From Bacteroidota bacterium (GTDB lineage Bacteria > Bacteroidota > Bacteroidia > UKL13-3): 41,347 nucleotides of DNA. The translations under genes were made by a program, and so were the position numbers. The stretch's first letter is position 1. The number at the start of each line of letters is the position of its first letter. Location: contig JAZKGM010000184.1 of the NCBI GenBank assembly GCA_040385895.1, positions 1 to 41,347 of the forward strand, written 5' to 3'. Below the pieces are notes generated by a model. The model was not told where the DNA came from and ran no database searches. It saw only the letters and a program-made list of their open reading frames with translations. Of the stretch, positions 2,898 through 29,450 are shown one piece after another.

Positions 2898-2922
2898 CCG
2901 GCACTATAACCATTTGTTGCTG

Positions 2923-6428: not shown

Positions 6429-6908
6429 TTAAGGGATGAGATTTAGCCTTTTAGCTTTTTCAACGGCCTGTATCCGTCTTTTCACATCTAACTTTTCAAA
6501 AAGATTCTGATTGTGTGTTTTGACGGTGCTTAACGAAACGAAAAGTTTTTCGGCAATTTCCTGGTTGCTGTGTCCTTGTGCCAATAAACCCAATATTTCC
6601 AGTTCCCGTTTGCTTAGCTCCAATCGGGAAACAAGCGATGCATCAAGAACAAAGTTTTCACCCCTGTTTATATACACTTCTTTTTCCACCAGTACGGTTT
6701 CAATTTTCGGTTTCGAAAGTTTTAAGGCAAGCCATATCCCTAATGAAGTAAAAATCAATGCGATCAACCCGATGTAGAGCTCAAATGAATGCCTGAATAT
6801 GATAAACCGAAGTTCCAGCCATTTGAGAAGGAACAGCAGGAAAGCCAGGCTGATGCTATAAAGTATAGTTGCTTTATTCCTCAGCAAAAAGTGTTTGTTA
6901 CCTGTCAT
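6429..6908 (-). CDS. Membrane-anchored LuxR/FixJ-type HTH transcriptional regulator (two N-terminal TM helices, no receiver domain)
   Basis: C-terminal [52 protein letters not shown] is a canonical LuxR HTH. The N-terminal approximately 65 aa form two hydrophobic helices. Confidence 0.85.
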
Positions 6909-7039
6909 TGTATAATGTCGAGTTACGCGCGGTTATCCGAATTTACACCATTACGGCAATTTTTTCATAACGGTTTTTGCATCCCGGGCGCAACGACAGT
7001 TTTTAATGAAGCAGATCAGGCATCAACAAGCCAGACAGC

Positions 7040-9049: not shown

Positions 9050-9207
9050 TTTAATGAAACAGGCAGGCTACCCCGGGCAGTTATTGCCTGCGCGGTAATC
9101 CTTTCGCCTGCCGTTTGGTGTGCTCTTCCAAAAGAATGCACCCGGTGTGTTGTGTTTTGCGCAATACACCTCTTTTTCCAACTAAACCAATTACTAAAAT
9201 AACAATA

Positions 9208-10299: not shown

Positions 10300-10321
10300 T
10301 CAACCCTAAAAACAAAATAAC

Positions 10322-13531: not shown

Positions 13532-14960
13532 AAACAGGCTGAGCAGTGCCGCGATCGGTGCTGCCCTGATACTGGCTACGGGATGTAGTTTACCATCAAC
13601 AATAAAGCTCAGGCAGGAAAATAAAACGGTTCCTTCGGGGTATAGCGGTGCATCGAAGGATACAGTAAACTCGGGGATGATCCAGTGGAAAAATTTCTTC
13701 ACCGATCCATACCTTCATGCATTGATCGATACTGCGCTTCAAAACAACCAGGAGTACAATATCATGATGCAGGAGATCAATATTGCGCAAAGTGAAGCGA
13801 AGGCAAGAAAAGGAGAATACCTGCCATTTCTGAATATTGGTGGGAGTGCCGGGGTTGAAAAAGCCGGAACGTATACAAGGAATGGTGCCGTTGAAAGAAA
13901 CCTCGAGCTCAATCCCGGAAAAGAAAATCCGGAGCCGCTTCCCGATTTTATGATAGGTGCCAATGCCTCGTGGGAGCTTGATATCTGGAAGAAGCTGCGC
14001 AATACTAAAAAATCGGCAGTGCTTAAATACCTGGCTACCGTTGAAGGCAGAAATTTTATGAGAACCAACCTCGTTGCCGAAATTGCCAGCTCTTATTATG
14101 AGTTGATGGCATTCGATAACCAGCTCGATATTCTGAAGCAGAATATTGAGATCCAGCAAAACGCGCTTGAGATTGTGAAAATGCAGAAGGAAGCGGCCAA
14201 AACCACAGAGCTGGCAGTGCGCAAGTTTGAAGCAGAGGTGCTCAAAAACCAGGCCCACCAGTACTACATTATGCAACAGATCACGGAAGCAGAAAACAAG
14301 ATCAATTTTCTTGTGGGAAGATTTCCGCAACCTGTACCACGCAACTCACAGGCTTTTGTCAATTTGCTTCCCGATTCCATTCATGGCGGCATTCCCTCCC
14401 AGCTGTTGAGCAACCGTCCTGATATCAAACAGGCAGAACTGGAGCTTGCTGCAGCCAAACTGGATGTAAAAGCAGCCAGGGCCAATTTTTATCCGTCTCT
14501 AAGGATCACGGCAGGTATAGGTTACCAGGCTTTTAATCCGCAGTTTATCCTCAAGTCGCCCGAGTCGATGATCTATTCGGCAGCAGGAGAACTGGTGGCT
14601 CCATTGATCAACCGGAATGCGATCAAAGCTTACTATTATTCAGCTTCATCAAAACAACTCCAGAACGTGTACAACTACGAACGCACCATTTTAAGGGCGC
14701 ATATTGAAGTAGCCAACCAGCTTTCCAACATCTCCAACCTGGAGAAAAGTTACGCCTTTAAAGAAAAGCAGGTGCAGGCGCTAAATGAATCGATCAATAT
14801 TTCAACAAGGCTGTTCAAGTCGGCCCGCGCTGATTATATGGAAGTGTTGCTCACACAACGTGATGCACTGGAATCGCGGTTTGAACTGATCGAAACCAAA
14901 ATGCAACAGCTGAACGCACGGGTGAATATGTACCAGGCGTTAGGCGGGGGCTGGAACTAA
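13506..14960 (+). CDS. Outer-membrane efflux factor (TolC/NodT family lipoprotein)
   Basis: Lipobox LATGC|S, NRPDIKQAELELAAAKLDVKAARANFYPSL and C-terminal YQALGGGW are classic OMF motifs. It overlaps the pump gene by 26 nt. Confidence 0.92.
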   Translation: MKVKIKNIKNRLSSAAIGAALILATGCSLPSTIKLRQENKTVPSGYSGASKDTVNSGMIQWKNFFTDPYLHALIDTALQNNQEYNIMMQEINIAQSEAKARKGEYLPFLNIGGSAGVEKAGTYTRNGAVERNLELNPGKENPEPLPDFMIGANASWELDIWKKLRNTKKSAVLKYLATVEGRNFMRTNLVAEIASSYYELMAFDNQLDILKQNIEIQQNALEIVKMQKEAAKTTELAVRKFEAEVLKNQAHQYYIMQQITEAENKINFLVGRFPQPVPRNSQAFVNLLPDSIHGGIPSQLLSNRPDIKQAELELAAAKLDVKAARANFYPSLRITAGIGYQAFNPQFILKSPESMIYSAAGELVAPLINRNAIKAYYYSASSKQLQNVYNYERTILRAHIEVANQLSNISNLEKSYAFKEKQVQALNESINISTRLFKSARADYMEVLLTQRDALESRFELIETKMQQLNARVNMYQALGGGWN

Positions 14961-15018: not shown

Positions 15019-15209
15019 TGTCTTTGAACCATCGGCTTAAACAGATGTTAAGCTATTCTTTTATCCTAGTTGGCGTGCCTGTTCATTGTATCACCGGGCC
15101 ACTTATTAACCGACCGCTGCCAGTTAATTCAAAATCCTTCCCACTTATAAAGTGAGCTGTATACGTGAATGCATGATGTGTGATCTTCGGTTGCCTAATT
15201 CTACACATT

Positions 15210-18200
15210 ATGAAAAGCAAATTTACTTTAATGCTCTTTTATGCCATCAGCTTGTTGCTGGTGAGCATGGAAGCAAAAAGCCAGATCGCCAGAAAAGTTT
15301 ATGGCGGCCCGGCCAATGAAACCAATGCGCATGTACAGCCCTCCCTGGGAGGGTTCCATTACATCATTTCAAAAACGGGTACAGGAACCCCACAAACCAT
15401 TCATATAAGCAGGTATGATGCAGCAGGAAATATGATCTGGCGGAAAAACTACACCGGTGTTTTAGGGAATACAGATGAGGTGGTATCTACCCTGGAAGAC
15501 CGCTCGGGAGCGCTGGTATTGCTTGTTAATGATGTTACCCCGCCTCCGCCTCCACCAGGCCTGAGCATCCTCCAGTATTTCAAAATTGTTAAAATAAATG
15601 CTGCCGGGGGACTGATCTCGTTCTGGTCGTATGCACCCGGCCTGATCGCGATCCCTCTTCAGCACACACGTGGTGTAAAGATCATGCAAAGCTTTACCGA
15701 TGATAATTATTATGTGATCGGCAACAGGATCCCGGCCGGAGCAAACCAGTTAGATGTGGGCGTGATCTTCAGAATAGATAATCTTGTGGGCTCCGTGCTG
15801 CATCAAAACCAGTTTCAATATAATTTTAACGGTACAAAACGCGATATCGGGTTCTATGACCTGGCGCAGATCAATGCAACCAACTGGGTAATCAGCGGGG
15901 CTTATTTGCCATTGCCAGCTAATACCCGGTATAATAACCTTGCCCTGGTATATAACTTCTCAGGAACCGGTTCGATCGTTGCCGTGAAACAGATCGAGTT
16001 CGACCAGAATAACCACGAAGCCTTTGACCGGGTGGTAGTAGACCAAAACCGGGGCAGGATCTATTTCGGGTATCATTTACATACAACGAACATACAGCAC
16101 AATATAGGCGTGGTATGTACCGATTACCTGCTTAATGTGACCTGGCGCACACGTATTACGCCTGTAACGGGAGAAGCCGAACGAATGAGCAGCATGATCT
16201 ACGATGCAGTTTCTGACCAGATCCTCACATCGGGATTTAGCGTAAGCACAGACCATGGCTTTATCACCAGCTTTTCTCCCACCGGCATCCGCAACTGGAC
16301 CAAAATTCCATCGGGTCTTGCGCTTAACGCTGCCCAGGCTCCGTTCCGCATCGCCTTATCAGCCAACAATACGATCTTATACAGCAGTGATATTCAAAAT
16401 GGCGGAAACAGGGACCTTACCTGGGGATCTACCGGCATATCCGGTGAACCGGGCGCATGTTTTAATCCTAAAGCGTATAATGCTGCCGTTCTTCCTTTTG
16501 TGCAATCACAGGACCCGATCGATCTGTCAGATCCTATGTTTTATCGCGATAACACGGAGTGTGCTGTTGCAGACATGCCTATGCCGGAGCAGGGAGTTTG
16601 TGCAAATTGTGTATTACCTGGCGATGTGATCAAATATGGCTATGCGGTGCTGCTTGGAAGTAATTTCTGGGGTACACAAACGCAGGGGGCCAAATATTAT
16701 ATTGACGGGGTGCTTACTGTTCCTTCGGGAGCCACGCTCGACATCACCAATGTGGATGTGATCTTCGGAAAAAACGGGGCCATCGTGTTCCAGGACGGAG
16801 CCATCCTCAGGGCCAACAATTCGGTGTTCCGTCCCTGCGATCCGGACCTTACCTGGAAAGGCATCTCTTTCCAGGGCAATGCCAAAGGCGTGGTTAACAA
16901 CTGCATATTTAAAAATGCAGCTTTTGCACTCGATATCGCTAACGGAAGGAACCAGCTTAAGATCACCAATAACCAGTTTTCCAATTGCCTGGTCAGCATC
17001 AGGATCACCAACACCCATACCGAACATGCTTCTGTTACCGGAAATAAGTTCTTTGCCGATTATTCAGACCTTGACTTCGGAATGGTGAACCCGGTATATT
17101 TATTCAGCAATACCTACACCGGGGTTCTGCTCCGTGCAAATACCGAAAGCATCGTGATCTCGCAGAATGAGTTCCTGCTTACCAGGAGTGCAGGCAATGT
17201 GCACATGTTGTATGGCATATATGCCACTCAGTCCAATACCGATATTTCGTCAAATGCATTCACCAGCTGCTACCGGGCGGTCGACCTGTTGCAACCCCTC
17301 GGTTTCAGTGTAGAGAATAACAAGATGGAAGTGACCCGTAAAAAGCATGACCAGGATTACCAGGTAAAAGTAACCTCCTCGGGTGCGTTACTTGCTACCA
17401 TTGCCAATAACCAGATCAGTAATTTTAATATGGCCAATGAGTTTATTTCAACACAGGCCGCTATTTACGCTGATTTTTCAAGTTACCTTAAGATCCATGA
17501 TAATGAGATCAAGGGGTTTGAAACCGGGTTGAAGATCAACCAGCTTACCGGTGCAAAGATCTATTCCAATCACATTACAGGCTGTCATATGTATGGAATT
17601 CATGCAGAAAATTGCATGTCGACCACCATAAAATGCAATGTAATAGACATGAACTACACGAAAGACAATACCCGCAACTGTGCAGGGATCAGGTATTATC
17701 AAACCCTCCCTCATCATAATAACCTGGACATACGTGGCAATTGTATCTTAAATACATATGATGCCATCGTCCTTTTTTCTTCCATGAGTTGGGTTACCAT
17801 ACCGGTAATCCGGAACAATTACCTGTATAACTATATCTATAACGGAATTTATAACGATAATTTCACGGGCTCTATCGGTACGGCCGCAGCAGCGCCCGGT
17901 GCAGGTAAAAATGTATTTATCAGCAATAACTATAACCCGTTTAGCGGTGCGATCGATATCTATTCAACTGTGCTTTTGTATGAAAACGGAAATTACAATA
18001 TCATGTCAACAGGCGGCATGGTTGGCAGCATGGGCGGAAGCAACCATTCTTCGGCTTCGTGCGGCCACTTTTTTGCCGGGAACAATAACAATGCACAGCG
18101 TATAGAACAGGAAGATAAATGCGACAGTGATGCTTCTTCGTCAGGAACACTGATCCCGCGCAGCGCCACTCCACCTTATGCCGGGTTGTTTGTTAAGCCC

Positions 18201-18932
18201 GAAGGAAGTTTGGGCTACCCGGTAGCAGATCATGCAAACACTTACGAGAGGCTGGTACACTGGTCGCAAACCGCACGGTCAATTTCTGCGACACCTTTCG
18301 AGCTGGAAAAGTTTACACAATGGCTGGCAACAAGCGAAACGAACAACGATGTGAAATTATTGGTGCAGGCCTATGTAAATATTCTTGCCGGTAAACATGC
18401 CGATGCAAGCACTGCACTTTTGCAGGTGAATAAGCCGGAGTGGAAGACCACGGTAGAAAGGATGCAGCTTCTGAATACGGTATCGGTAAAAGGATTCGTA
18501 GCTGACGAAACCACCCGGGCAAGGGCATCATTACTGGTGCAGGACAACGACTTTTTTGCTGCTGCATTGGGCATGGTGTTCGAACCATGGCATGATGAGT
18601 TTCACTATACGTTTGCTTCCGACAGGCCATATGAACGGCAAAAAGGGGACTATTCAAGGATCGACCATCCTGTGGTAACCTTTTCGGTATACCCTAACCC
18701 GGTAAAAGACGGCAGTTTTAAAGTAAATATTTCTACTCCAAACAACAGCGAAAGCACTTTATACATAAGGGACCTGTTGGGCAGGACCTTATTTTCAAAG
18801 GAAGTACCGTTCTCGGCAGGGACACTCGAAGTGTCTGTTAATGATCTTCCATTGGGCATTTACATTGCATCGGTAGAAAGCACGGATAATGTGCTGAAGA
18901 CCGAAAAGATTGTTATTTCGGGTCACAAGTAA
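15210..18932 (+). CDS. Large secreted protein: N-terminal beta-rich region, central right-handed parallel beta-helix repeats, T9SS C-terminal sorting domain
   Basis: Signal peptide MKSKFTLMLFYAISLLLVSMEAKSQ. There are at least 10 periodic I/V-x-x-N-x-F/I beta-helix turns (ITNNQFSNC, VTGNKFF, ISQNEF, ISSNAF, VENNKM, IANNQISN, IHDNEIKG, IYSNHITGC, IKCNVIDM, IRGNCILN, IRNNYLYN). The C-terminus VYPNPVKDGSFKVNIS...LPLGIYIASVES...KIVIS is a Por_Secre_tail type CTD. Start at ATG 15210 rather than GTG 15180. Confidence 0.88.
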   Translation: MKSKFTLMLFYAISLLLVSMEAKSQIARKVYGGPANETNAHVQPSLGGFHYIISKTGTGTPQTIHISRYDAAGNMIWRKNYTGVLGNTDEVVSTLEDRSGALVLLVNDVTPPPPPPGLSILQYFKIVKINAAGGLISFWSYAPGLIAIPLQHTRGVKIMQSFTDDNYYVIGNRIPAGANQLDVGVIFRIDNLVGSVLHQNQFQYNFNGTKRDIGFYDLAQINATNWVISGAYLPLPANTRYNNLALVYNFSGTGSIVAVKQIEFDQNNHEAFDRVVVDQNRGRIYFGYHLHTTNIQHNIGVVCTDYLLNVTWRTRITPVTGEAERMSSMIYDAVSDQILTSGFSVSTDHGFITSFSPTGIRNWTKIPSGLALNAAQAPFRIALSANNTILYSSDIQNGGNRDLTWGSTGISGEPGACFNPKAYNAAVLPFVQSQDPIDLSDPMFYRDNTECAVADMPMPEQGVCANCVLPGDVIKYGYAVLLGSNFWGTQTQGAKYYIDGVLTVPSGATLDITNVDVIFGKNGAIVFQDGAILRANNSVFRPCDPDLTWKGISFQGNAKGVVNNCIFKNAAFALDIANGRNQLKITNNQFSNCLVSIRITNTHTEHASVTGNKFFADYSDLDFGMVNPVYLFSNTYTGVLLRANTESIVISQNEFLLTRSAGNVHMLYGIYATQSNTDISSNAFTSCYRAVDLLQPLGFSVENNKMEVTRKKHDQDYQVKVTSSGALLATIANNQISNFNMANEFISTQAAIYADFSSYLKIHDNEIKGFETGLKINQLTGAKIYSNHITGCHMYGIHAENCMSTTIKCNVIDMNYTKDNTRNCAGIRYYQTLPHHNNLDIRGNCILNTYDAIVLFSSMSWVTIPVIRNNYLYNYIYNGIYNDNFTGSIGTAAAAPGAGKNVFISNNYNPFSGAIDIYSTVLLYENGNYNIMSTGGMVGSMGGSNHSSASCGHFFAGNNNNAQRIEQEDKCDSDASSSGTLIPRSATPPYAGLFVKPEGSLGYPVADHANTYERLVHWSQTARSISATPFELEKFTQWLATSETNNDVKLLVQAYVNILAGKHADASTALLQVNKPEWKTTVERMQLLNTVSVKGFVADETTRARASLLVQDNDFFAAALGMVFEPWHDEFHYTFASDRPYERQKGDYSRIDHPVVTFSVYPNPVKDGSFKVNISTPNNSESTLYIRDLLGRTLFSKEVPFSAGTLEVSVNDLPLGIYIASVESTDNVLKTEKIVISGHK

Positions 18933-18950: not shown

Positions 18951-18986
18951 GGAAAAGCCGTTAGCAATAACGGCTTTTCCTATTTA
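18951..18986 (+). terminator. Strong rho-independent terminator
   Basis: Perfect 12-bp stem ggaaaagccgtt / aacggcttttcc with a 6-nt loop, followed by tattta. Confidence 0.8.
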
Positions 18987-19302
18987 ATACATAGTCGTGT
19001 TAATTGATGCGATCAGGAAGTACTTTCATCGAAATTCCCCCCCGGCAAAAGTTATAGTGGTCCTGAATATTTTATCAGGAAGAAAAATGACTAAAATTTT
19101 TTTAACGTGCATACACCCGGTAATTGCTTAATGTGTGCAATAACATTCCCACAGTCAAATCAATCTCTACAGTCTCTTGTTTTTTGGTCGGAGTCAACAA
19201 TCATACCAACTATTGAATATTAAAAGGTGCTAAGCACCGGGGAAACCAATTGCACTATATATACGTAGTTAGTCTGTATCACTTTACAAAAAACAATTAA
19301 TT

Positions 19303-21054
19303 ATGAAAAAAATTCAACTCCGGTTTGCCAGGTTAACAATGGCAATGTGTGCAGGATTTCTGCTTCTGGGCAGTTCTGCATTCGCTTCCAGTCATAGGGA
19401 AGCACCATTAATCTCAAACGATCCGCTGGCGGATAACACCGATCTTTATGCTTTCAGAAGCCCTGATAACACGAATACGGTTACCATCGTGGCCAATTAC
19501 ATTCCTTTTCAATTACCGGAAGGCGGTCCGAACTGGACCTCTTTTGGCGAGAACATCCGTTATGAAGTATACGTAGATAATGATGCGACCAAACCGGGCG
19601 CTGAAATTGTTTACCGCTTCACCTTCACTAAAATGAACATGGACCCGTCTACGTTCTTTAACATCCGTTTAGGCAAAGAAAACCTTAAAACAACCTATAA
19701 ACTGGAACGCAGTATCAATGGCGGGCTTACTTTTGCAACCATTATCGCTGCAGGTGTAGTGCCTCCGCCAAATATCGGTGCACGCTCAATCGAAGGTGCT
19801 GCCGGTTTAAACACCAATTATTCAACCCTGGTTAATAATGCGATCACCACTGCCGGAACAGGCGAAAAAGTATTCTGCGGCCCTGCCGATGATCCTTTCT
19901 TTGTTGACCTTGCAGGCGCATTCGATCTTGGAAACTTCCGCCCTTCAGACAATACAACGAATGCCCCTAAAGATGGGGTTGCCCGTTTTAATGTGCATTC
20001 TATTGTGATCCAGATCCCTATTGCCACTTTACAAAAAGCAGGCAAAGATGTGAGCATGGCTGCCAATATTTTAGATCCTGATTTTGTGATCGGTGTATGG
20101 GCTGCTGCTAGCCGTCCTCAAATGAGAACACTGGATGCCAATGGTGCCGCTTCGAACTATTCAGGCAACTGGGTTCAGGTATCACGTTTGGGCATGCCTT
20201 TAACAAATGAAGCCATTATTCCGATCGGTTCAAAAGACAAATGGAATGCAACAACCCCTGCTGGCGATCTTCAGTTCGCTAAATACTTCACCAATCCTGA
20301 ATTGGCCTTATACATGGATGATTCAAAATTTGGCGGAGCAGTTCCTGCGCTAAATTCATTACGCATCCAGAGCAATTCACTGGGATCGTTTGATTTCAGG
20401 AACGGACAACCCGGCTTGTTCTCTTTAAAAGGAACAGCTGCTTTAGATGGTACAGCCCTGGCTGAATCTGCATTTGGCGGTATCTTATTACCGGATGCCA
20501 CAAGCCCGCGTGCAGTCGATCTGCTTCCGATATTTTATACGGGTGTTCCTAACATGCGTCCTTACCAGTTGGCCACAGGCAAAAACGGTGACCCATTAGC
20601 GGCCGGTAAACCTTTCATTCATAATTTCCTTCCTTCTTTAGGAGATATGTTACGCCTGAACATGGCTGTACCGGTTACCCCGAGGAACGATCCTAAATTC
20701 AGTTCCCTTGGAATTGTTTCTGCTGCCGTATTGGGATTAACAGATACCATGTACAACAAATCAACAGCGCTGCAAATGATCCCCAACATGGATGGTTTCC
20801 CGAACGGAAGACGCCTGGAGGATGACGTAACCACGATTGAGTTACAAGCGGTGAGCGGTGTTGCTTTGGCTGCGATCGGTTTATGGTATAATGATTATTC
20901 TGGTGGAACAGCAAGCCCTGTTACAGACAGGCTAGTTAAAGTGTTAAGCTTTACTGCAGGTCCTACTAAGAACGACATCAATTTTAAAGCAGTATTTCCT
21001 TACGTGCAGGAGCCATGGAGAGGTTCTGACTATTCATTACAAGACAGATTCTAA
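19303..21054 (+). CDS. DUF4331 domain protein, paralog 1 (signal peptide, no T9SS CTD)
   Basis: Signal peptide ending SAFA|SSHREAPLISNDPLADNTDLYAFRSPDN, the hallmark N-terminal motif of DUF4331. Also VFCGPADDPFFVDL, VSRLGMPLTNEA and MDGFPNGRRLEDDV. Confidence 0.9.
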   Translation: MKKIQLRFARLTMAMCAGFLLLGSSAFASSHREAPLISNDPLADNTDLYAFRSPDNTNTVTIVANYIPFQLPEGGPNWTSFGENIRYEVYVDNDATKPGAEIVYRFTFTKMNMDPSTFFNIRLGKENLKTTYKLERSINGGLTFATIIAAGVVPPPNIGARSIEGAAGLNTNYSTLVNNAITTAGTGEKVFCGPADDPFFVDLAGAFDLGNFRPSDNTTNAPKDGVARFNVHSIVIQIPIATLQKAGKDVSMAANILDPDFVIGVWAAASRPQMRTLDANGAASNYSGNWVQVSRLGMPLTNEAIIPIGSKDKWNATTPAGDLQFAKYFTNPELALYMDDSKFGGAVPALNSLRIQSNSLGSFDFRNGQPGLFSLKGTAALDGTALAESAFGGILLPDATSPRAVDLLPIFYTGVPNMRPYQLATGKNGDPLAAGKPFIHNFLPSLGDMLRLNMAVPVTPRNDPKFSSLGIVSAAVLGLTDTMYNKSTALQMIPNMDGFPNGRRLEDDVTTIELQAVSGVALAAIGLWYNDYSGGTASPVTDRLVKVLSFTAGPTKNDINFKAVFPYVQEPWRGSDYSLQDRF

Positions 21055-21090
21055 GATAAGGAAAGTTTAAATCACATAATTTTTAACGAA

Positions 21091-23133
21091 ATGAAAAAAT
21101 TGAATATACTAAGAACGATCATTGCTTCTGCGCTATTGGCAGCAACAGGCAATGTAATGGCATCAAGCCACAGGGAGGCACCCCTGATCTCAAACGATCC
21201 ACTGGCAGATAATACGGATCTGTATGCGTTCCGTAGTCCTGATAATCCGAATACGATTACCATTATCGCTAACTACATTCCTTTCGAATTGCCGCAAGGC
21301 GGGCCTAACTGGTCAACATTCGGAGAGAACATCCGTTACGAGATCAACATCGATAACGATGCATCAAAACCGGGCGCGGAAATTATTTACCGTTTCACTT
21401 TCAGCCGTATTAATGAAGATACAACCACTTTCTTTAACATCCGCCTGGGCAAACAGAATTTAAAAACAACCTACAAGCTGGAGCGCAGCACAAACGGAGG
21501 TATTTCTTTTACAACCATCGTTGCCAAAGGAACAGTTCCGCCAAATAACATTGGCCCGCGTTCTATTGAAGGAGCTGCCGGAATGGGCGCTGCCAACTAC
21601 AAAGCGTTGATGAATGCTTCGATCACTACAGCCACTTCAGGTGAGAAAGTTTTTTGCGGTCCTGCAGACGATCCTTTCTTTGTTGACCTGGGTGGTGCTT
21701 TCGACTTAGGTGGTTTCAGGAAAACCGGTGCAAGAGATGGTGTAGCTAAATTTAACTGCCATACCATTGCGATCCAGGCACCTATCGAAAACCTTCAGAA
21801 AACAGGCTTAACACTGGCCAGTGCTACCAGCATCCTTGATCCTAATTTTGTGATCGGTGTTTGGGCTACAGCAAGCCGTCCACAGATAGAAACCTTAAGC
21901 GATATGGGAGCTACTCCCGGTGTTTCAGGCAACTGGGTTCAGGTATCACGCTTAGGCATGCCTTTAACCAACGAAGCTGTTATCCCGCTTGGCGATAAAG
22001 ACAAATGGAATGCTACTTCACCGGTGAACGACCTTCCGTTTGCTAAATATTTCAGCAACCCTGAGCTGGCTTTATACATGGACGACTCCCAGTTTGGCGG
22101 AGCTGTACCAGGCCTTGCAGACCTGAGGATCCAAACCAACTCGTTGGGTAAATATGATTTCCGTAACGGAAAAGCAGGTTTATGGAGCTTGAAAGGAACT
22201 GCTGCAGTTGCAGGAACAGCATTGGATGATGCCGCTTTTGGTACCATTTTATTGCCTGATTCCATAAGCCCGCGTGCAGTGGATCTGCTTCCCCTGTTCT
22301 ATACAGGTGTGCCAAATCTTGCGCCTTACCAGTTAGCTGTTAATAAAGGTGAAAATCCTTTGGCGGCCGGTAAGCCTTTCATTAATAATTTCCTTCCTTC
22401 ATTGGGTGATATGTTACGCCTGAATATGGCTGTACCTGCAACACCAAGGAACTCTCCTGATTTCAGCCCGCTTGGAATTATCGGGGCGGCAGCTTTAGGT
22501 TTAACAGATGCACGTTTTAACGGAGACATCAGCCTTGATACGATCCCTAACATGGATGGTTTCCCGAACGGAAGACGCCTTGAGGATGACGTAACTACTA
22601 TTGAATTGCAGGCAGTAAGCGGTATCGCGCTGTTCGCTATCGGTTTGTATTACGATGATTATTTCAGCATACTTGGAGTAGGAAATCCGTTAACACAGGA
22701 CTTCAGCGATGTGTATGGTTTCAGGGCTGGTCCTACCCAGAATGATACTGCTTTCCAGGCAAATTTCCCTTACGTTCAACAACCGTGGGCAGGTTTCAGG
22801 GGTGCATCTTATGCAGCTCCGGTATTGCCTCCGGTAACTGGTTTGAAAAATCTTGGCATCGGTTCAAGAGATCAGCTGGTTGCAAACAACTATCCTAATC
22901 CGTTCAGCGGAACCACAACGATTAAATATAATGTAACCACTGATTCGAAAGTAACGGTTGTTGTATTTGATATTAAAGGACAAAAAGTAGCTACGCTTGT
23001 TAACAATGAATTGAACAAAGCAGGTGTGCATACTGTTGACTTTAATGCAGCGGGCCTGCAGGCAGGAACGTACTTTGCACAGATCACTACCAAAGACAGC
23101 CAGGGAACTGTTAAACTTCTCATCTCAAAATAA
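21091..23133 (+). CDS. DUF4331 domain protein, paralog 2, with a T9SS C-terminal sorting domain
   Basis: Colinear with paralog 1 and highly similar to it throughout. It carries an extra ~90-aa tail NYPNPFSGTTTIKYNV...VVVFDIKGQKVATLV...AGTYFAQITT...VKLLISK, which is a T9SS CTD. Confidence 0.9.
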   Translation: MKKLNILRTIIASALLAATGNVMASSHREAPLISNDPLADNTDLYAFRSPDNPNTITIIANYIPFELPQGGPNWSTFGENIRYEINIDNDASKPGAEIIYRFTFSRINEDTTTFFNIRLGKQNLKTTYKLERSTNGGISFTTIVAKGTVPPNNIGPRSIEGAAGMGAANYKALMNASITTATSGEKVFCGPADDPFFVDLGGAFDLGGFRKTGARDGVAKFNCHTIAIQAPIENLQKTGLTLASATSILDPNFVIGVWATASRPQIETLSDMGATPGVSGNWVQVSRLGMPLTNEAVIPLGDKDKWNATSPVNDLPFAKYFSNPELALYMDDSQFGGAVPGLADLRIQTNSLGKYDFRNGKAGLWSLKGTAAVAGTALDDAAFGTILLPDSISPRAVDLLPLFYTGVPNLAPYQLAVNKGENPLAAGKPFINNFLPSLGDMLRLNMAVPATPRNSPDFSPLGIIGAAALGLTDARFNGDISLDTIPNMDGFPNGRRLEDDVTTIELQAVSGIALFAIGLYYDDYFSILGVGNPLTQDFSDVYGFRAGPTQNDTAFQANFPYVQQPWAGFRGASYAAPVLPPVTGLKNLGIGSRDQLVANNYPNPFSGTTTIKYNVTTDSKVTVVVFDIKGQKVATLVNNELNKAGVHTVDFNAAGLQAGTYFAQITTKDSQGTVKLLISK

Positions 23134-23149
23134 TACACAATAAAATAAA

Positions 23150-23183
23150 ATGCGGGCTGATGATCAATCAGCCCGCATTTATT
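23150..23183 (+). terminator. Hairpin terminator/attenuator between DUF4331-2 and the TPR gene
   Basis: Perfect 12-bp stem atgcgggctgat / atcagcccgcat with loop gatca and a weak T tail (ttatt). It ends only ~20 nt before ATG 23203. Confidence 0.6.
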
Positions 23184-23202
23184 AAAAAGCCAAACCTGAA
23201 CA

Positions 23203-24507
23203 ATGAAATTTTTATCAAAACTTATTTTTGCAGTATGCCTGTTAACTTGTATTACTGCCTGCGATAACAACGCACAAACAAAAAAAGATACCGGTTCGTT
23301 CATGCCATTGAAGGCACGGAACGGGGAGCTGGCAAAATCGGAAGAGTGGCCCGTTGTGCAGCAAAAAGCACAGGGATTAAATGAAAAGATCGCAAAAGAT
23401 CCTTCCGACCTTAAATCGAAATTATTATTAGCACAATTATATATGCAGGAAGCCCGCATCACAGGCGAGCATCCTTATTACTATCCTGCAACACTTACTA
23501 TTTTAGATGATGTACTAAGCCGCGATGCCAACAATTTTGAGGCATTGGCGTATAAAGCATCTGTTGAGCTTTCATTGCATCATTTTGCCGATGCGCTTGC
23601 AACAGGCTCCAAAGCAAAAAAGATCAATGCCTCCAATGGATTTATTTTTGGCGTGCTGTGTGATGCCAATGTAGAGTTAGGGAACTATGACGAAGCCGTT
23701 AAAATGTCGGAGCAGATGCAGGCATTGCGCCCGGGATTGGAATCATATTCGCGGGCATCTTATTTAAGGGAAATTTACGGGAACAATGCAGCAGCCATTG
23801 AAGCGATGAAAATGGCATACAACGCAGGCCTGCCGGGATCGGAAGAAGCTTCATGGGCAGGCAATACCCTTGCCGGGCTTTACGAAAGCACAGGCGACCT
23901 GAAGAATGCAGAGAACACCTATACACAGATATTGACACAACGGCCTTCGTATGCATTTGCTATGGCAGGCCTGGCGCGTGTTGAAAAAGCAAAAGGAAAC
24001 TATGACAAGGCGCTTGCCATGCTTGATAAAGCCATCGCCATGATGCCCGAGTTCTCTTTTTATGAAGACAAGGCTGATGTATATGCTGCACAGGGACAAC
24101 CTGAAAAAGCAAAACAGATGTATACCGAAGTGATCGGAATGCTGAATGAGGATGCTGCAAGCGGCCATTATGCCGATATGGAGCTGGCCAAGGCATACCT
24201 TCATACAGGCAATATGGATAAGGCATTGGAGCATGCTACAATAGAATATAAAAGAAGACCTGAGAACATTGATGCAAACAGCACCATGGGCTGGGTACTT
24301 TACCAGAAAGGAGAATATGCCAAAGCAAAAGAACACATGCAGAAAGCCGTTCGCATGAATACGCAAAATGCAGAATTATTATGCAAAGCAGGCATTATAG
24401 AAGCAGCTGCCGGTAACAAAGCAAAAGGCACTGAATGGGTGAAAAAAGCAATGAAAATCAACCCCAACATGCCCGAAGACCTTAAAGCCAAAGCAAAAAC
24501 GGTTTAA
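23203..24507 (+). CDS. Tetratricopeptide-repeat (TPR) lipoprotein
   Basis: Lipobox LLTCITAC|DNN. Repeated 34-aa A/Y/L-rich TPR units run throughout (e.g. NFEALAYKASVEL, GNYDEAVKMSEQMQALRP, GNYDKALAMLDKAIAMMP, GEYAKAKEHMQKAVRMN). Confidence 0.85.
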   Translation: MKFLSKLIFAVCLLTCITACDNNAQTKKDTGSFMPLKARNGELAKSEEWPVVQQKAQGLNEKIAKDPSDLKSKLLLAQLYMQEARITGEHPYYYPATLTILDDVLSRDANNFEALAYKASVELSLHHFADALATGSKAKKINASNGFIFGVLCDANVELGNYDEAVKMSEQMQALRPGLESYSRASYLREIYGNNAAAIEAMKMAYNAGLPGSEEASWAGNTLAGLYESTGDLKNAENTYTQILTQRPSYAFAMAGLARVEKAKGNYDKALAMLDKAIAMMPEFSFYEDKADVYAAQGQPEKAKQMYTEVIGMLNEDAASGHYADMELAKAYLHTGNMDKALEHATIEYKRRPENIDANSTMGWVLYQKGEYAKAKEHMQKAVRMNTQNAELLCKAGIIEAAAGNKAKGTEWVKKAMKINPNMPEDLKAKAKTV

Positions 24508-24540
24508 TACATCATTATTTATAAAACCCTGTTACATCAC

Positions 24541-24750
24541 ATGAAAAAAATTATTTTAAACGCATCACTTGTATCTGCAATTGCTCTCGGGTTAACCGCA
24601 TGCAGCAGTTCACCTGAAAAAGCGGATACCAACGAACAAAAGATAGAAGCAGAACATAGTGAAGAGCATGAGCATGCTCATGTTCACGGAGATTCAACAC
24701 ACACGCACGATCACATGCACGAAGGTGATACTTCCATGCACGATCATTAA
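24541..24750 (+). CDS. Small His/Met/acidic-rich lipoprotein (putative metal-binding)
   Basis: Lipobox ALGLTAC|SSS gives a mature peptide of ~49 aa. The last 34 residues contain 11 His (EAEHSEEHEHAHVHGDSTHTHDHMHEGDTSMHDH). Confidence 0.7.
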   Translation: MKKIILNASLVSAIALGLTACSSSPEKADTNEQKIEAEHSEEHEHAHVHGDSTHTHDHMHEGDTSMHDH

Positions 24751-24759
24751 TTGTTTCCG

Positions 24760-24797
24760 GCAGAAGGCTCAATAAAATATTGGGTCTTCTGCTTTTG
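24760..24797 (+). terminator. Hairpin terminator/attenuator between the His-rich gene and the TonB-dependent receptor
   Basis: Stem gcagaag / cttctgc, extendable through an AT-rich inner stem, followed by ttttg. Confidence 0.5.
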
Positions 24798-24849
24798 TAA
24801 AAACCACTTACTGAACGATAACGTATCTGTAAAACAACCTGTACATACG

Positions 24850-27111
24850 ATGAAAAAAAATATACAATTTCTCTTTTTATTGATCACACTTTTAACCGGG
24901 CATGCAGCATTCTCGCAAGGGGCTTCTGTTTCGGGGAAAGTGACCGATGCTTCGCTGCAACCGGTTTATGGTGCGGAGGTTTCCCTTAAAGAAACCAGCA
25001 TTAAAACCTTTACCGATTCGAACGGGGTGTTTGTATTAAACAACATCGGCAATGGAAAATATACGGTAAGCATCACCAGGCGTGGTTATGAACCACAACT
25101 CAAAAACATTGAAATAAAAAATAACAGGCCGGCTAACATTGCTTTCAACCTTAAAGCAGATTACCTCAACCTGAAAGAGGTAGTGATCACCGGGGATAAC
25201 AGCACACAGGCAAATACCATTGTTAACCGCATTGATATGCAGCTACGCCCGGTGAATTCATCGCAGGACCTGCTGCGCCTGGTACCGGGTTTATTTATAG
25301 CCCAGCATGCAGGCGGGGGAAAAGCCGAACAGATCTTTTTAAGGGGATTTGATGTGGACCATGGAACCGACTTTGCCATTTATGTAGACGGAATGCCGGT
25401 GAACATGCCTTCGCATGCCCACGGCCAGGGTTATGCCGACCTGCATTTCCTGATCCCTGAGACCGTGCGCGAACTGGAAGTGAACAAAGGTCCTTATGCC
25501 ACCAAATATGGCGACCTGGCTACATCCGGATCGGGAGAGTTTAAAACGCTGAATGCCTTAAGCAAAAACCAGGTGAAGCTTGAATATGGCATGTTCAACA
25601 CACAACGTATGCTGGGAATGTTTAATGTACTGGATAAAAAACACTTGTTCTCCAGGAAAAAAGAAAACCTGTATGTAGCAGGTGAGTACCGGTATTCGGA
25701 TTCCTATTTTCAAAGCTCGCAGGATTTTAAGCGTGTTAATTTATTTTCTAAATACACAGGCGTGCTTAACAACGGATCGCAGCTTTCCATCACACTCTCC
25801 ACGTTTCAAAGCAACTGGGATGCATCGGGCCAGATCCCGGATCGTAAGGTAAATGATGGCACCATCAGCCGTTTTGGAAGCATAGACAACACAGAAGGCG
25901 GAGAAACAGGCCGCACCAACTTTAATGTAACCTATACCAAGCCTTTAGAGAACGGTTCGTTCAAGAACCAGGTGTATTACAGCCGTTACGATTTTAAACT
26001 CTATTCCAACTTTACTTTCTTTTTAAATGATTCTGTAAATGGCGACCAGATCAAGCAGGAAGACCACCGAAACATTTATGGCTATACCAGTACCTTAAAC
26101 CTGAACAACTACCTGGGTTCAAAAAAACTAAGTTCAACTTTTGGCGCAGGGGTAAGGTATGATAATTCGAACATCAGCCTTGACCACACCGTAAAAAGGG
26201 AATTTTTAAATGAGATCGTAAGGGGAACACTGAACCAGGTGAATGCATGGGTTTATGTAGACGAGAACCTGGAACTAACATCTAAACTGAGGTTAAACCT
26301 TGGCTTAAGAGGAGATATATATAATTTCGATTTCAAGAACCAAACCGTTGATACCGCTTCGGGAAATGTAACCAAAGCTGTATTCAGTCCAAAGCTGAAC
26401 CTTTTTTATACGCTGAATCAATCTGTTCAGTTGTTCGCAAAATCAGGATATGGTTTTCACTCGAACGATGCAAGAGCAGTTGTTGTGGGGAAATTAGAAA
26501 ATACGCTGCCTAAAGCATTGGGCTATGAAGTGGGTTCTACTTTTAAATTGGGAAAACGGGCATTGGTGAACGTGGCTTTATGGGGCCTCGACCTGGAGAG
26601 TGAACTCGTATATGTAGGCGATGAAGGAATTGTGGAAGCAGCCGGAAGGTCGAGAAGGTTGGGTGTTGATTTTGGCGTGCGTTACCAGCTGACGCAGTAT
26701 TTATTTTTAGATGCTGATGTGAACATGAACAACGGACGTTTGCTGGATGAACCGGCAGGTGCGAACCGCATTCCGCTTGCACCAACATTTACCAGCATTG
26801 GTGGCATAAGCTATAAACGCCCGGCAGGGTTCAGCGGAAGCGTTCGCTACCGTTATATAGGCGATAGGGCTGCTACAGAAGATAATTCCATCATTGCACA
26901 TGGTTATTTTTTAGTGGATGCAGTGATCAACTACACAAAAGGAAATTACCAGTTTGGGCTAACAGCTGAAAACCTGTTGAACCGCGAATGGAAAGAGGCG
27001 CAGTTTGCAACAGAAAGCCGCCTGCAAAACGAAACCCAATCGGTTAACGAGATCCATTATACACCAGGCACACCTTTATTTATAAGAGGCAGTGTGAGTT
27101 ATTTTTTCTAG
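24850..27111 (+). CDS. TonB-dependent outer-membrane receptor (CarboxypepD_reg N-domain, plug, 22-strand barrel), non-SusC type
   Basis: Signal peptide MKKNIQFLFLLITLLTGHAAFSQ, then the SGKVTDA...GAEVSL...TDSNGVF.L.NI..GKYTVSI...GY carboxypeptidase-regulatory fold. Plug motifs are LLRLVPGLFIAQHAGGGKAEQIFLRGFD and DGMPVN. The C-terminus ends in an aromatic residue (...SVSYFF). No SusD partner gene follows. Start at ATG 24850 rather than TTG 24751. Confidence 0.9.
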   Translation: MKKNIQFLFLLITLLTGHAAFSQGASVSGKVTDASLQPVYGAEVSLKETSIKTFTDSNGVFVLNNIGNGKYTVSITRRGYEPQLKNIEIKNNRPANIAFNLKADYLNLKEVVITGDNSTQANTIVNRIDMQLRPVNSSQDLLRLVPGLFIAQHAGGGKAEQIFLRGFDVDHGTDFAIYVDGMPVNMPSHAHGQGYADLHFLIPETVRELEVNKGPYATKYGDLATSGSGEFKTLNALSKNQVKLEYGMFNTQRMLGMFNVLDKKHLFSRKKENLYVAGEYRYSDSYFQSSQDFKRVNLFSKYTGVLNNGSQLSITLSTFQSNWDASGQIPDRKVNDGTISRFGSIDNTEGGETGRTNFNVTYTKPLENGSFKNQVYYSRYDFKLYSNFTFFLNDSVNGDQIKQEDHRNIYGYTSTLNLNNYLGSKKLSSTFGAGVRYDNSNISLDHTVKREFLNEIVRGTLNQVNAWVYVDENLELTSKLRLNLGLRGDIYNFDFKNQTVDTASGNVTKAVFSPKLNLFYTLNQSVQLFAKSGYGFHSNDARAVVVGKLENTLPKALGYEVGSTFKLGKRALVNVALWGLDLESELVYVGDEGIVEAAGRSRRLGVDFGVRYQLTQYLFLDADVNMNNGRLLDEPAGANRIPLAPTFTSIGGISYKRPAGFSGSVRYRYIGDRAATEDNSIIAHGYFLVDAVINYTKGNYQFGLTAENLLNREWKEAQFATESRLQNETQSVNEIHYTPGTPLFIRGSVSYFF

Positions 27112-27140: not shown

Positions 27141-27177
27141 AAGAAGCCTTAGTATCTGTGTTAAGGCTTCTTTTTTA
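27141..27177 (+). terminator. Rho-independent terminator after the TonB-dependent receptor
   Basis: 11-bp stem aagaagcctta / taaggcttctt with a 10-nt loop and a tttttt tail. Confidence 0.8.
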
Positions 27178-27314: not shown

Positions 27315-29450
27315 ATGGAAACAATCAATCACATCTGGAGCTTTTCAACAGTAGGCGGAGTTAAACGGGTTAACCTTGAATCCGGTACGGACCTGTTGCA
27401 CCTGGCTTCGTTAGACCAGAAATTATGGACAGCCCTGGGTTGCCCTGTGGAAGGCCTTGAAATAGACCGGGCCACGCTGCGGCTTATTGATAAAGATGGT
27501 GACGGACAGATCCGTGTACCGGAGGTGCTGACCGCAGTAAGCTGGGTGCTTAACATATTGAAAGATCCAGACGACCTGCTTAAACAGGATAACACACTTC
27601 CTCTTTCGGTGATCAGCAACGGAACCGAAGCGGGAAGGCAATTGCTGGCCTCGGCCAAAATTATATTGAGCAACCTGGGCAAACCCGATGCAGATCATTT
27701 AACCATTGAAGATACTTCTGATCTTGAAAAGATCTTTGCTTCCACACGTTTTAACGGGGATGGGATCATCACAGAAGATTCAGCCAATACCCCTCAAAGT
27801 GTTTTGCTTCTTAACGAGGTAATGGCCTGCATGGGCAGCCTTACCGACAGGGGAGGCAAGCAGGGTGTTGACCAGCCGATGCTTGAAAATTTCATACAGG
27901 CCTGTTATGCCTATAAAACATGGTTTGAAAGTGCTGATGATTCTGTCCGTCCCTTCGGTGCAGCTACCGGCCAGGCACACCTCGTTTACCAGAAAGTAAA
28001 AACCAAAATAGACGATTATTTTATCCGCAGCCACATGGCCGGGTACGACCCTGCATCGGCACATGTATTAAATGTACTGGTGGCGCAGGTGGAGGCAATA
28101 AGTCCAAAAGATCTTTCGGGCAGCCTAGAAGAAATTGCCGCCTATCCTTTGTCGAAAATTGAAGCGGGAATGCCTTTAAAATTAATAGAAAGCGTTAATC
28201 CTGCATGGCAAAATGAGCTTGCTTTGTTTAAGCAACAAGTAAGCGATCCCTTGTTTTCCGCTTCAGCCACACTTAGCGAAGCACAATGGAAAACAGTAAA
28301 AGCGCAGTTTGTGGCCTATGAAAAATGGATGGCCGAAAAGCAAGGTGCAGAAGCAGAGCTGCTAGGTATTTTAAGGGTCAATGAAATTATAGCCGGGAAT
28401 ACGGTGCAGGAGCTTTACCAGCTTGTGATGCAAGACAAAGAGCTGGAAGAAGAAGCCAACAATATGATCCTGGTTGACCAGCTGGTTCGCTATTACCGCG
28501 ATCTTTTTAAGCTGCTTAAAAACTTTGTTACCTTCTACGATTTTTATTCGCCCGGGCATAAAGCCATTTTCCAGGCCGGTACTTTGTTTATCGACCAGCG
28601 GAGCTGCGACCTGTGCATCCGTGTAAATGATATTGCCAGGCACGCTGAAATGTCTGCTTTCAGTGGCATGTTCTTAATGTATTGTGAATGCGCATCGCGT
28701 TCAACCAACGAAAAAATAACCATTGCAGTAGCACTCACCAATGGCGATATTGATAACCTGGTTCCGGGCCGCAATGCCATTTTTTACGACCGCAACGGAT
28801 TGGACTGGGATGCCACGGTTGTGAAAATAATTGATAACCCCATCAGCATGAAGCAGGCATTCTGGTCGCCATACCGCAAAGTTTCGCGGTTTATCGAAAC
28901 CCAGATCAATAAAGTGGCAGCAGCCCAGGACAATAAAGTAACTGGCGATGTAACCAAAGGGATTGAAGACACCAGGCTGAAAAATGAACCGGCTCAGGCA
29001 CCGCCACCACCTTTTGATGTAGGAAAATTCGTAGGGATCTTTGCGGCAATTGGTTTGGCATTGGGAGCAATAGGAACAGCAGTGGCATCGGTAATTGCAG
29101 GCTTTATGGGCCTGGCCTGGTGGAAAATGCCTATTGCAGTGCTGGGCATCATGCTGTTGATATCAGGCCCTGCAATGGTAATGGCTTATTTAAAATTAAG
29201 GAAGCGCAACCTTGCACCAATACTCGATGCAAATGGCTGGGCCGTAAATGCGAGTGCCGTTATTAATATCCAGTTCGGAAATACATTAACGCATATTGCC
29301 GAGCTACCTAAAGGGGCTAAGGTGAACCTGAATGATCCGTTCACCAAAAAGAAACGCCCGGTATTGCCAATGATCATCCTGGGCATCGTTGTCATCGCAC
29401 TTGTTCTTTATCTTTTAGACAGGTATGGTTTCATACAGGTCCATTTTTAA
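27315..29450 (+). CDS. Orphan 711-aa protein: N-terminal canonical EF-hand Ca2+-binding loop, large soluble body, three C-terminal TM segments
   Basis: DKDGDGQIRVPE (27489-27524) fits the 12-residue EF-hand loop D-x-D-x-D-G-x-I-x-x-x-E exactly. The C-terminus has hydrophobic stretches FVGIFAAIGLALGAIGTAVASVIAGF, MPIAVLGIMLLISGPAMVMAYL and VLPMIILGIVVIALVLYLL. I recognise no family for the remaining ~450 aa. Confidence 0.8.
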   Translation: METINHIWSFSTVGGVKRVNLESGTDLLHLASLDQKLWTALGCPVEGLEIDRATLRLIDKDGDGQIRVPEVLTAVSWVLNILKDPDDLLKQDNTLPLSVISNGTEAGRQLLASAKIILSNLGKPDADHLTIEDTSDLEKIFASTRFNGDGIITEDSANTPQSVLLLNEVMACMGSLTDRGGKQGVDQPMLENFIQACYAYKTWFESADDSVRPFGAATGQAHLVYQKVKTKIDDYFIRSHMAGYDPASAHVLNVLVAQVEAISPKDLSGSLEEIAAYPLSKIEAGMPLKLIESVNPAWQNELALFKQQVSDPLFSASATLSEAQWKTVKAQFVAYEKWMAEKQGAEAELLGILRVNEIIAGNTVQELYQLVMQDKELEEEANNMILVDQLVRYYRDLFKLLKNFVTFYDFYSPGHKAIFQAGTLFIDQRSCDLCIRVNDIARHAEMSAFSGMFLMYCECASRSTNEKITIAVALTNGDIDNLVPGRNAIFYDRNGLDWDATVVKIIDNPISMKQAFWSPYRKVSRFIETQINKVAAAQDNKVTGDVTKGIEDTRLKNEPAQAPPPPFDVGKFVGIFAAIGLALGAIGTAVASVIAGFMGLAWWKMPIAVLGIMLLISGPAMVMAYLKLRKRNLAPILDANGWAVNASAVINIQFGNTLTHIAELPKGAKVNLNDPFTKKKRPVLPMIILGIVVIALVLYLLDRYGFIQVHF

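Follow-up and report, generated by a model that had tools for sequence, protein, structure and literature searches.

Gene content and boundaries of the locus

We analyzed a 41,347-nt stretch of DNA from a Bacteroidota bacterium (contig JAZKGM010000184.1; hereafter the window) and describe a cluster of five genes at positions 19303-27111 that encodes two paralogs of the DUF4331 family (PF14224), a tetratricopeptide repeat (TPR) lipoprotein, a small His-rich lipoprotein, and a TonB-dependent transporter. This cluster is an instance of a widespread, uncharacterized envelope module, with a core consisting of an exported DUF4331 protein and a TPR protein anchored to the membrane. Bacteroidota add to this core the display of one DUF4331 copy through type IX secretion (T9SS), usually a second copy without the sorting domain, a dedicated transporter, and often a HupE/UreJ_2 permease. 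The features of the locus, including promoters of the extracytoplasmic function (ECF) sigma type, are:

18951-18985, + strand: intrinsic terminator of the upstream T9SS beta-helix gene, 12-bp stem and T-rich tail; left module boundary
19243-19267, + strand: ECF-sigma-type promoter P1, AAACC-N16-CGTA, ending 35 nt before the ATG of DUF4331 paralog a
19303-21054, + strand: DUF4331 paralog a, 583 amino acids (aa), PF14224
21091-23133, + strand: DUF4331 paralog b, 680 aa, PF14224 and T9SS C-terminal sorting domain
23148-23180, no strand assigned: 14-bp GC-rich hairpin after paralog b and before the TPR gene, -24.8 kcal/mol, z -8.5
23203-24507, + strand: TPR lipoprotein, 434 aa, TPR families and lipobox ITAC
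24541-24750, + strand: orphan His-rich mini-lipoprotein, 69 aa, lipobox LTAC and His tail
24801-24825, + strand: ECF-sigma-type promoter P2, motif and spacing as in P1, ending 27 nt before the transporter ATG
24853-27111, + strand: TonB-dependent transporter, 752 aa, CarboxypepD_reg, Plug and TonB barrel
27141-27172, + strand: intrinsic terminator, right module boundary

Translation of the window, combined with Pfam and NCBIfam searches, bore out the original prediction of five same-strand envelope genes: all five open reading frames (ORFs) lie on the + strand where they had been placed, with the expected domains, both lipoboxes ([LVI][ASTVI][GAS]C, read directly in the translations), and the T9SS tail. 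Folding likewise supported the strong terminators proposed on both flanks, with a left hairpin (18951-18980) of -29.7 kcal/mol (z -8.4) and a right hairpin (27141-27172) of -17 kcal/mol (z -3.6).

Both paralogs match the PF14224 profile from end to end (positions 1-421 of 421), at 432.8 bits (E 2e-129) for paralog a and 419.9 bits (E 2e-125) for paralog b against a cutoff of 27 bits, and are 69% identical to each other. Residues 601-678 of paralog b form a type A T9SS sorting domain (PF18962, 43.9 bits, cutoff 27; TIGR04183, 45.1 bits, cutoff 23), as had been claimed for one of the two. Type A cargo is recognized by a sorting domain at the extreme C-terminus together with a Sec signal; paralog b has both, and is predicted to be displayed on the surface or released. 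The window contains no genes of the T9SS machinery. Paralog a, with a Sec signal peptide but without a T9SS domain, is therefore predicted to be periplasmic.

The third gene encodes a protein that consists entirely of TPR behind a lipobox (...LTCITAC followed by DNN). The fourth encodes a lipoprotein with the lipobox ...ALGLTAC followed by SSS; its mature form, beginning at Cys21, has 49 aa, and 11 of the last 33 are His, the one-third His tail that had been described. The longest ORF for the transporter begins at TTG 24751, and the most plausible start is ATG 24853, which opens a signal peptide (MKKNIQ...) and gives 752 aa, in agreement with the expected length of about 750. TonB-dependent transporters consist of a plug followed by a 22-strand barrel. 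Hidden Markov model searches placed its plug (PF07715, 69.2 bits, cutoff 23.9) and barrel (PF00593, 94.2 bits, cutoff 27), behind a CarboxypepD_reg domain, above the Pfam cutoffs, as they did DUF4331. The SusC/RagA model TIGR04056 reached 66 bits against a cutoff of 368.25, and no neighboring ORF matched SusD, consistent with the earlier view that the locus is not a glycan polysaccharide utilization locus.

DUF4331 and a TPR lipoprotein form a conserved pair

DUF4331 is a large family, with 4,515 representatives at 50% identity (E <= 1e-3) in several phyla, and its members are ~70% identical between Bacteroidota genera. We sampled 80 genome loci and 80 metagenome loci, the latter seeded with a non-Bacteroidota alignment, called ORFs, labeled them by the window proteins, and clustered the remaining ORFs. 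Census counts refer to the 36 Bacteroidota-type loci with complete flanks:

TPR protein after DUF4331: 34/36 loci
Same transporter subfamily nearby: 22/36 loci
HupE_UreJ_2 permease nearby: 16/36 loci
Small His-motif membrane protein: 8/36 loci
ECF sigma factor: 6/36 loci

The TPR lipoprotein is thus a near-obligate partner of DUF4331, and it also stands beside DUF4331 in Chloroflexota and Actinomycetes loci. The original prediction had asked whether DUF4331, TPR, His-rich ORF, and transporter recur together; for DUF4331, TPR, and transporter this held far above chance, and for the His-rich ORF it did not. Residues H126, F128, D154, E158, G160, Y162, P177, R184, G193, and A270 of the TPR protein are invariant across phyla. 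Its profile matches solved structures of generic TPR proteins only, and these only over its C-terminal half; the invariant polar patch (H126, D154, E158, Y162, R184) lies outside the matching part.

Transporter orthologs near DUF4331 score 600-840 bits and constitute a subfamily specific to DUF4331 loci, the closest solved relatives being only YncD and PqqU (E 1e-11). Invariant His residues are found at positions 152, 170, 188, and 190 in the plug and at His536 outside it; three of the four plug His are missing in an unrelated transporter of equal architecture. Genes for glycoside hydrolases, peptidases, SusD, and ABC sugar systems are all absent from the conserved neighborhood.

The HupE_UreJ_2 protein (PF13795; Pfam E 3e-45) belongs to the nickel/cobalt transporter superfamily and usually lies between the TPR and transporter genes. 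We found no characterized member of the PF13795 branch in the literature, and nothing relevant on HupE together with TonB transporters in Bacteroidetes. In Chloroflexota and Actinomycetes, DUF4331 and TPR genes are followed by a permease with a NicO domain (PF03824) in 6 loci, and such a permease is present in 5 of the 9 TPR-bearing non-Bacteroidota loci with enough downstream sequence. Two nickel/cobalt-type permease families have thus been recruited independently beside the same gene pair, and this is the strongest argument for a transition-metal role.

The small His-rich lipoprotein, by contrast with its part as a key clue in the original prediction, is not a conserved component. A homolog search returned none, the sole other copy being identical and in a metagenome contig, and the closest relative (L005, 89% identity) has nothing in its slot; the ORF is therefore a lineage-specific orphan. 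In relatives this slot holds HupE/UreJ_2, the small His-motif membrane protein, or both. The suggestion of a metal-acquisition locus, which had leaned on this ORF, is independently backed by the HupE/UreJ_2 and NicO permeases and by the recurrent His-rich proteins of relatives. Three unrelated His-rich small proteins adjoin DUF4331 in three lineages: the orphan described here; a 183-200 aa protein between the TPR and transporter genes of Rubricoccaceae (L061, L064, L065, L070); and a small protein 3' of DUF4331 in L127, L141, L161, and L162 with variable His-rich inserts, such as MHSHGHSHSHSHE in L127.

A family of small proteins of 120-200 aa, encoded between the HupE or TPR gene and the transporter gene, has no Pfam or NCBIfam match. 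Its members begin with a membrane helix, share the motif ..H.F....H...VH..NG..H.H.E.., and have PPP(R/K) at the C-terminus; they occur in L013, L016, L017, L018, L026, L032, L057, L073 (15098-15493), L076, and L080. Its Rubricoccaceae members (L061 13813-14415, L064 13656-14210, L065 6947-7498, L070 3572-4153) are very His-rich. DUF4331 has a second context in other phyla, where a ~95-aa protein with a twin-arginine translocation (TAT) signal lies directly upstream in ~19 loci (e.g., L148 27-326, L121 1383-1664, L124 212-571), and a protein of ~105-140 aa without a signal peptide, often with His-rich inserts, lies directly downstream in ~11 loci (e.g., L085 2078-2392, L127 5311-5706, L141 11371-11802). 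Neither has a family assignment.

DUF4331 is predicted to be processed to an N-terminal Ser-Ser-His

We compared 213 DUF4331 homologs with intact N-termini. All share one His (His31 in paralog a) at a median position of 32. It is preceded by Ser in 213/213 homologs and, two residues before, by Ser in 210/213; three residues before it stands A, G, or S, four before a variable residue, and five before one of A, S, V, L, T, G, I, and M. Such a pattern agrees with the -1/-3 rule for signal peptidase I, and mature DUF4331 is therefore predicted to start NH2-Ser-Ser-His-Arg-Glu-Ala-Pro, with cleavage between A-F-A and S-S-H in paralog a (mature start Ser29-Ser30-His31) and between V-M-A and S-S-H in paralog b.

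Proteins with an amino-terminal Cu(II)/Ni(II)-binding (ATCUN) motif start with NH2-X-X-His and, through a free alpha-amino group, bind Cu(II) or Ni(II) in square-planar geometry. DUF4331 has its His at mature position 3 as predicted from sequence, and the mature N-terminus is a predicted ATCUN-type Cu/Ni site. The DUF4331 domain always comes first, even in proteins of 1200-1500 aa, which when scanned for fused domains contained unannotated spacers and T9SS tails only; this strict position fits the need for a free N-terminus that such a site would have. Partner permeases show a similar pattern: a signal peptide ending in Ala and followed directly by His is found in 24/24 HupE_UreJ_2 proteins and in 5/6 NicO fusions, the N-terminus of the sixth being apparently miscalled, so that these permeases, too, are predicted to carry an N-terminal His once mature.

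A gene for an S26 signal peptidase (~330 aa) lies near DUF4331 in L024, L028 (1298-2314), L076, and L080 (8121-9113), at a distance of <= ~120 nt in three loci and ~5.5 kb in L076. SodX is a dedicated S26 protease that exposes the N-terminal Ni site of nickel superoxide dismutase (NiSOD), and by analogy the S26 neighbor hints at dedicated N-terminal processing of DUF4331.

Presumed surface and periplasmic copies, and a fold without known relatives

Among 102 DUF4331 C-termini from Bacteroidota-type loci, 57 carry Por_Secre_tail and 2 carry CHU_C, and 42 end in the DUF4331 domain itself. A copy without the sorting domain precedes a copy with it in 33 loci, and the T9SS copy stands alone in 20. 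From these counts, having a surface copy is standard, and a second copy, presumed periplasmic, is often added; such an arrangement would fit hand-over across the outer membrane.

An AlphaFold model of paralog a, built from a 69-sequence alignment (predicted local distance difference test 82, predicted template modeling score 0.86), has a beta-sandwich in its N-terminal half and a mixed C-terminal half. A Foldseek search of this model against the PDB returned nothing below E 1e-3 (best E 8e-3, template modeling score 0.12), and single-sequence and profile searches of the PDB found no relative. Beyond DUF4331 itself there was no Pfam, NCBIfam, or PDB match for the domain, and so none to the hemophore families (HasA, HmuY, HusA). 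Besides His31, the invariant residues of DUF4331 are D44, D47, Y49, Y87, D208, Q292, R295, and R403.

A conserved hairpin and promoter motifs of the ECF-sigma type

ECF-sigma promoters combine a -35 element (..AAC) with a 16-17 nt spacer and a -10 element (CGT.). The region upstream of the DUF4331 genes had been described as lacking an obvious promoter; it contains P1, which reads as -35 GAAAC, a 17-nt spacer, and -10 CGTA, and which is conserved across relatives. The pattern AA[AT]C[CT]-N16-18-CGTA is found upstream of the first DUF4331 gene in 35/68 Bacteroidota regions (~1 expected; background 0.015 per 200 nt), and its strict form in 23/68 (background 0.005). It reads as -35 GAAAC or AATCC, a spacer of 16-17 nt, and -10 CGTA, the build of an ECF-sigma promoter. 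In the window there are 3 hits against 0.23 expected. P2 has equivalents before the transporter gene in L001, L005, L025, L037, and L050, and elsewhere this motif is found ahead of genes for the transporter, the TPR protein, or the His-motif protein.

In 12/72 Bacteroidota loci, DUF4331 has as neighbors an ECF sigma gene of SigK-like or TIGR02943-like type and an anti-sigma gene of the RskA or ChrR-cupin type; among the 83 other loci, an ECF sigma gene is near in 18 and an RskA gene in 14. The window has no ECF sigma gene, the ORFs at 1594-2731 and 5773-6908 belonging to other families. The text of an ECF reclassification paper (PMC7826278) names no DUF4331 target for these sigma groups.

A strong hairpin stands in the position of 23148-23180 in 34/40 related loci, with differing sequences, and is likely a partial terminator or mRNA-stabilizing element. 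Given this hairpin and P2, the five genes probably do not form one simple transcription unit. We consider it likely from the arrangement of these elements that DUF4331 transcripts are abundant, that both the TPR gene and the small ORF are reached by read-through, and that the transporter is transcribed from its own promoter.

We also noted other sequence elements. A perfect 6-1-6 palindrome, GGTGCTaAGCACC, lies at 19226-19238, 4 nt upstream of the P1 -35 element; it was flagged as terminator-like on the - strand and has no equivalent in the last 120 nt upstream in L005. The third copy of the promoter motif (6952-6976, - strand) ends 43 nt before the ATG of an ORF for a 159-aa LuxR/GerE-type regulator (6429-6908, - strand), which is followed by a gene for a DUF4199 membrane protein (5773-6321); both genes may fall under one ECF regulon with the module, or the motif may be a chance hit. 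A c-di-GMP-II-GAG aptamer (RF03169, 67.7 bits against 40) is present at 3538-3621 (+ strand) of L082, from the Chloroflexota metagenome-assembled genome contig JBDTYC010000015.1, ~500 nt upstream of DUF4331-TPR-NicO genes and with an antisense tRNA between; it recurred in none of 20 further DUF4331 loci. Finally, intergenic short tandem repeats (CATGAAACC... and ATGATGAATG...) around DUF4331 in L030 (~1010-1130 and 5309-5402) and L066 (14080-14185) form very long hairpins of -43 to -45 kcal/mol.

Genes flanking the module

Directly upstream of the module, 15180-18932 (+ strand) encodes a 1250-aa T9SS cargo protein with a right-handed beta-helix/NosD-like region and Por_Secre_tail, and further upstream lies a resistance-nodulation-division (RND) efflux operon (9115-14960), which is not conserved beside DUF4331 in relatives. 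Past the module terminator, 27315-29450 (+ strand) encodes a 711-aa protein with several hydrophobic segments at its C-terminal end and no Pfam or NCBIfam match. We excluded the RND operon, the beta-helix gene, and the 711-aa gene as module parts, as none of them is conserved next to DUF4331 in relatives. The window has two further sizeable ORFs without a Pfam match, at 37685-41218 (+ strand, 1177 aa) and 2863-4287 (+ strand, 474 aa).

A possible route for transition-metal capture and import

We suggest, with about even confidence, that the module captures and imports a transition metal. Metal binding, the identity of the metal, the direction of transport, and hand-over between proteins are what we infer from the observed gene content, neighborhood conservation, sequence motifs, and promoter motif. 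The permease families and the His-rich companions lead us to favor Ni(II), and the N-terminal motifs make Cu(II) the chief alternative. In the mechanism we propose, surface DUF4331 would capture a scarce metal, most likely Ni(II), then Cu(II), with Co or Zn possible, through at least the processed, ATCUN-type NH2-Ser-Ser-His, and would pass the ion to the transporter with its invariant plug His cluster. The periplasmic DUF4331 and the TPR lipoprotein would receive it next. In relatives, the permease with the N-terminal His would then move the ion over the inner membrane; in this genome the gene for that step would have to lie elsewhere, and the ion may be buffered by the orphan His-rich lipoprotein. 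Expression would be driven by the ECF-sigma promoter before DUF4331 and by its second copy before the transporter gene, the hairpin after the DUF4331 genes probably keeping DUF4331 in excess over the downstream genes. A more specific version, which we offer only tentatively and hold to be doubtful as a whole, is that DUF4331 is a proteinaceous Ni(II)/Cu(II) metallophore of new fold, displayed by the T9SS under ECF control, that feeds a "histidine path" through the transporter plug, the periplasmic paralog with its TPR partner, and the permease.

A number of observations weigh against metal capture and import. The transporter is not nearby in 14 of the 36 complete loci, the window has no HupE_UreJ, HupE_UreJ_2, or NicO gene, and its His-rich ORF is an orphan. 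For the NicO fusion, the best-scoring model is RcnA, a nickel/cobalt efflux protein, at a score below the cutoff, so that transport could run in either direction. DUF4331 has a single invariant His and no Cys; its invariant polar residues look more like a Ca2+/Fe3+ site or an active site than a Ni/Zn site, and both Ser before the His are invariant, which an ATCUN motif does not need. As to regulation, ECF sigma factors with ChrR- or RskA-type anti-sigma factors more often go with stress responses than with regulons for metal starvation, and a search of 18980-19310 for inverted repeats with arms of >=10 nt found no long palindrome that might be the Fur/Zur-type operator for which the original prediction had allowed. 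A riboswitch search gave none in the window or in six HupE-containing loci. Finally, we found no paper addressing DUF4331 or PF14224, and the functional steps hence have to be inferred.

Alternatively, DUF4331 may be an extracytoplasmic metalloenzyme, for example a Ni- or Cu-dependent one with a redox or antioxidant function, its site formed by the processed N-terminus and its cofactor supplied and inserted by the products of the other genes. Conservation of the Ser-Ser-His and the strict N-terminal position of the domain exceed the needs of simple metal capture; both DUF4331 and the TPR protein have many invariant polar residues (in the latter H126, D154, E158, Y162, and R184); the S26 peptidase gene near DUF4331 in four loci recalls SodX and NiSOD; the family is large and well conserved, as enzymes often are; and ChrR-cupin and SigK/RskA-type anti-sigma families are associated with redox and singlet-oxygen sensing (for SigK-RskA, PMC7826278). 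We nevertheless consider an enzyme unlikely: DUF4331 shows no similarity to the fold or family of any known enzyme, an enzyme outside the cell can obtain its metal without an inner-membrane permease, and surface and periplasmic copies beside an outer-membrane importer read more easily as a relay. The module could also be a defense against metal excess or envelope stress, in which an ECF sigma factor would under stress switch on DUF4331 for sequestration of toxic ions outside the cell and NicO/RcnA-like proteins for their export. This would account for the conserved ECF-type promoter that drives the genes and for the resemblance of the NicO fusion to an efflux model; ECF sigma/anti-sigma pairs, such as the CnrYXH-type system, do run Ni/Co resistance (PMC7826278), and His-rich proteins could serve as buffers. 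The RND efflux operon just upstream points the same way, but it lies outside the conserved neighborhood. An energy-dependent outer-membrane importer in 22 of the 36 loci argues against defense, sequestration does not explain the periplasmic paralog, and the studied members of the HupE/UreJ family are importers; we think this explanation improbable.

Least probable in our judgment is that DUF4331 binds or hydrolyzes an organic nutrient that the transporter takes in, or binds Ca2+/Mg2+ as a surface protein, with the nearby cation permeases incidental. Most Bacteroidota TonB-dependent transporters that are paired with surface proteins do take up organic substrates, the conserved Asp, Asn, and Tyr of DUF4331 would be apt for binding Ca2+, a sugar, or a phosphate, and Cytophaga hutchinsonii needs the T9SS for Ca2+/Mg2+ assimilation (PMC11611037). 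Monoderm phyla, however, have the DUF4331-TPR pair without any transporter, and the membrane protein that recurs beside the pair there is a cation permease of the NicO type; His-rich companions recur; and the conserved neighborhood lacks the hydrolase, peptidase, SusD, and ABC sugar-system genes noted above.

Relation to known uptake systems

If metal capture and import is the function, the module shares the logic of metallophore or hemophore systems and of surface-pair systems and none of their protein families. Metal-chelating proteins secreted by the type VI secretion system (T6SS) dock on TonB-dependent transporters, as TseM does on MnoT and TseZ on HmuR (PMC11611037). These effectors, TseF-FptA, and the hemophore pair HasA-HasR resemble the module in combining an exported protein with an energy-dependent outer-membrane importer (PMC11611037). 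The module differs from them in exporting its protein via a T9SS sorting domain, or via Sec in monoderms, rather than via the T6SS or type I secretion system (T1SS); it has no sequence or fold similarity to them; and its periplasmic paralog and obligate TPR partner have no counterpart there. In Bacteroidota, SusD-SusC, BtuG-BtuB, XusB-XusA, and HmuY-HmuR likewise set a surface binding protein beside its TonB-dependent transporter. Their surface proteins are lipoproteins, whereas the partner in the module would be held or released through a T9SS C-terminal domain; the module transporter is not of the SusC/RagA type and has no SusD; and its ligand would be a metal ion in place of a glycan, corrinoid, siderophore, or heme.

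Other parts of the module have separate parallels. HupE/UreJ and NiCoT/NicO permeases are represented by the PF13795 and PF03824 members that recur as inner-membrane partners in relatives, none of them in the window; classical HupE/UreJ proteins act alone, without exported partners or a TonB-dependent transporter, unlike the relatives of the module. The predicted formation of a site upon signal-peptide removal resembles ATCUN proteins, the Ni-hook of NiSOD (SodX), and the His1 "histidine brace" of lytic polysaccharide monooxygenases (LPMO) and CopC. ATCUN proteins and NiSOD have no counterpart of the ~550-aa domain behind the motif in DUF4331, and its invariant Ser-Ser is not an ATCUN requirement. 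Promoter architecture and sigma/anti-sigma neighbors resemble the ECF regulons of the RskA-type (SigK-like) and ChrR-cupin groups, the cognate sigma factor being outside the window. To the logic it shares with these systems, the module adds T9SS display, a periplasmic paralog, a TPR partner, and ECF control.

T9SS-dependent ion assimilation has been described in C. hutchinsonii, and according to the review PMC11611037 neither the T9SS substrates that bind the ions nor the receptor in the outer membrane has been identified; the module is a candidate for such a substrate and its receptor. For DUF4331, the fixed TPR partner, the recurrent metal-transport neighbors, the predicted processed Ser-Ser-His, and the ECF-type promoter are new here and give a concrete hypothesis. 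Should DUF4331 instead prove to be an enzyme, it would be an extracytoplasmic metalloenzyme of a new kind, whose active site depends on processing. If metal capture and import is correct, DUF4331 would represent a new class of exported metal-capture protein, the T9SS would have a role in trace-metal nutrition, and the uncharacterized HupE_UreJ_2 branch would gain a physiological context. Were DUF4331 a metallophore, this would be the first T9SS-dependent metal-acquisition pathway, and would give a role to several thousand sequence clusters in Bacteroidota, Chloroflexota, Actinomycetota, and other phyla.

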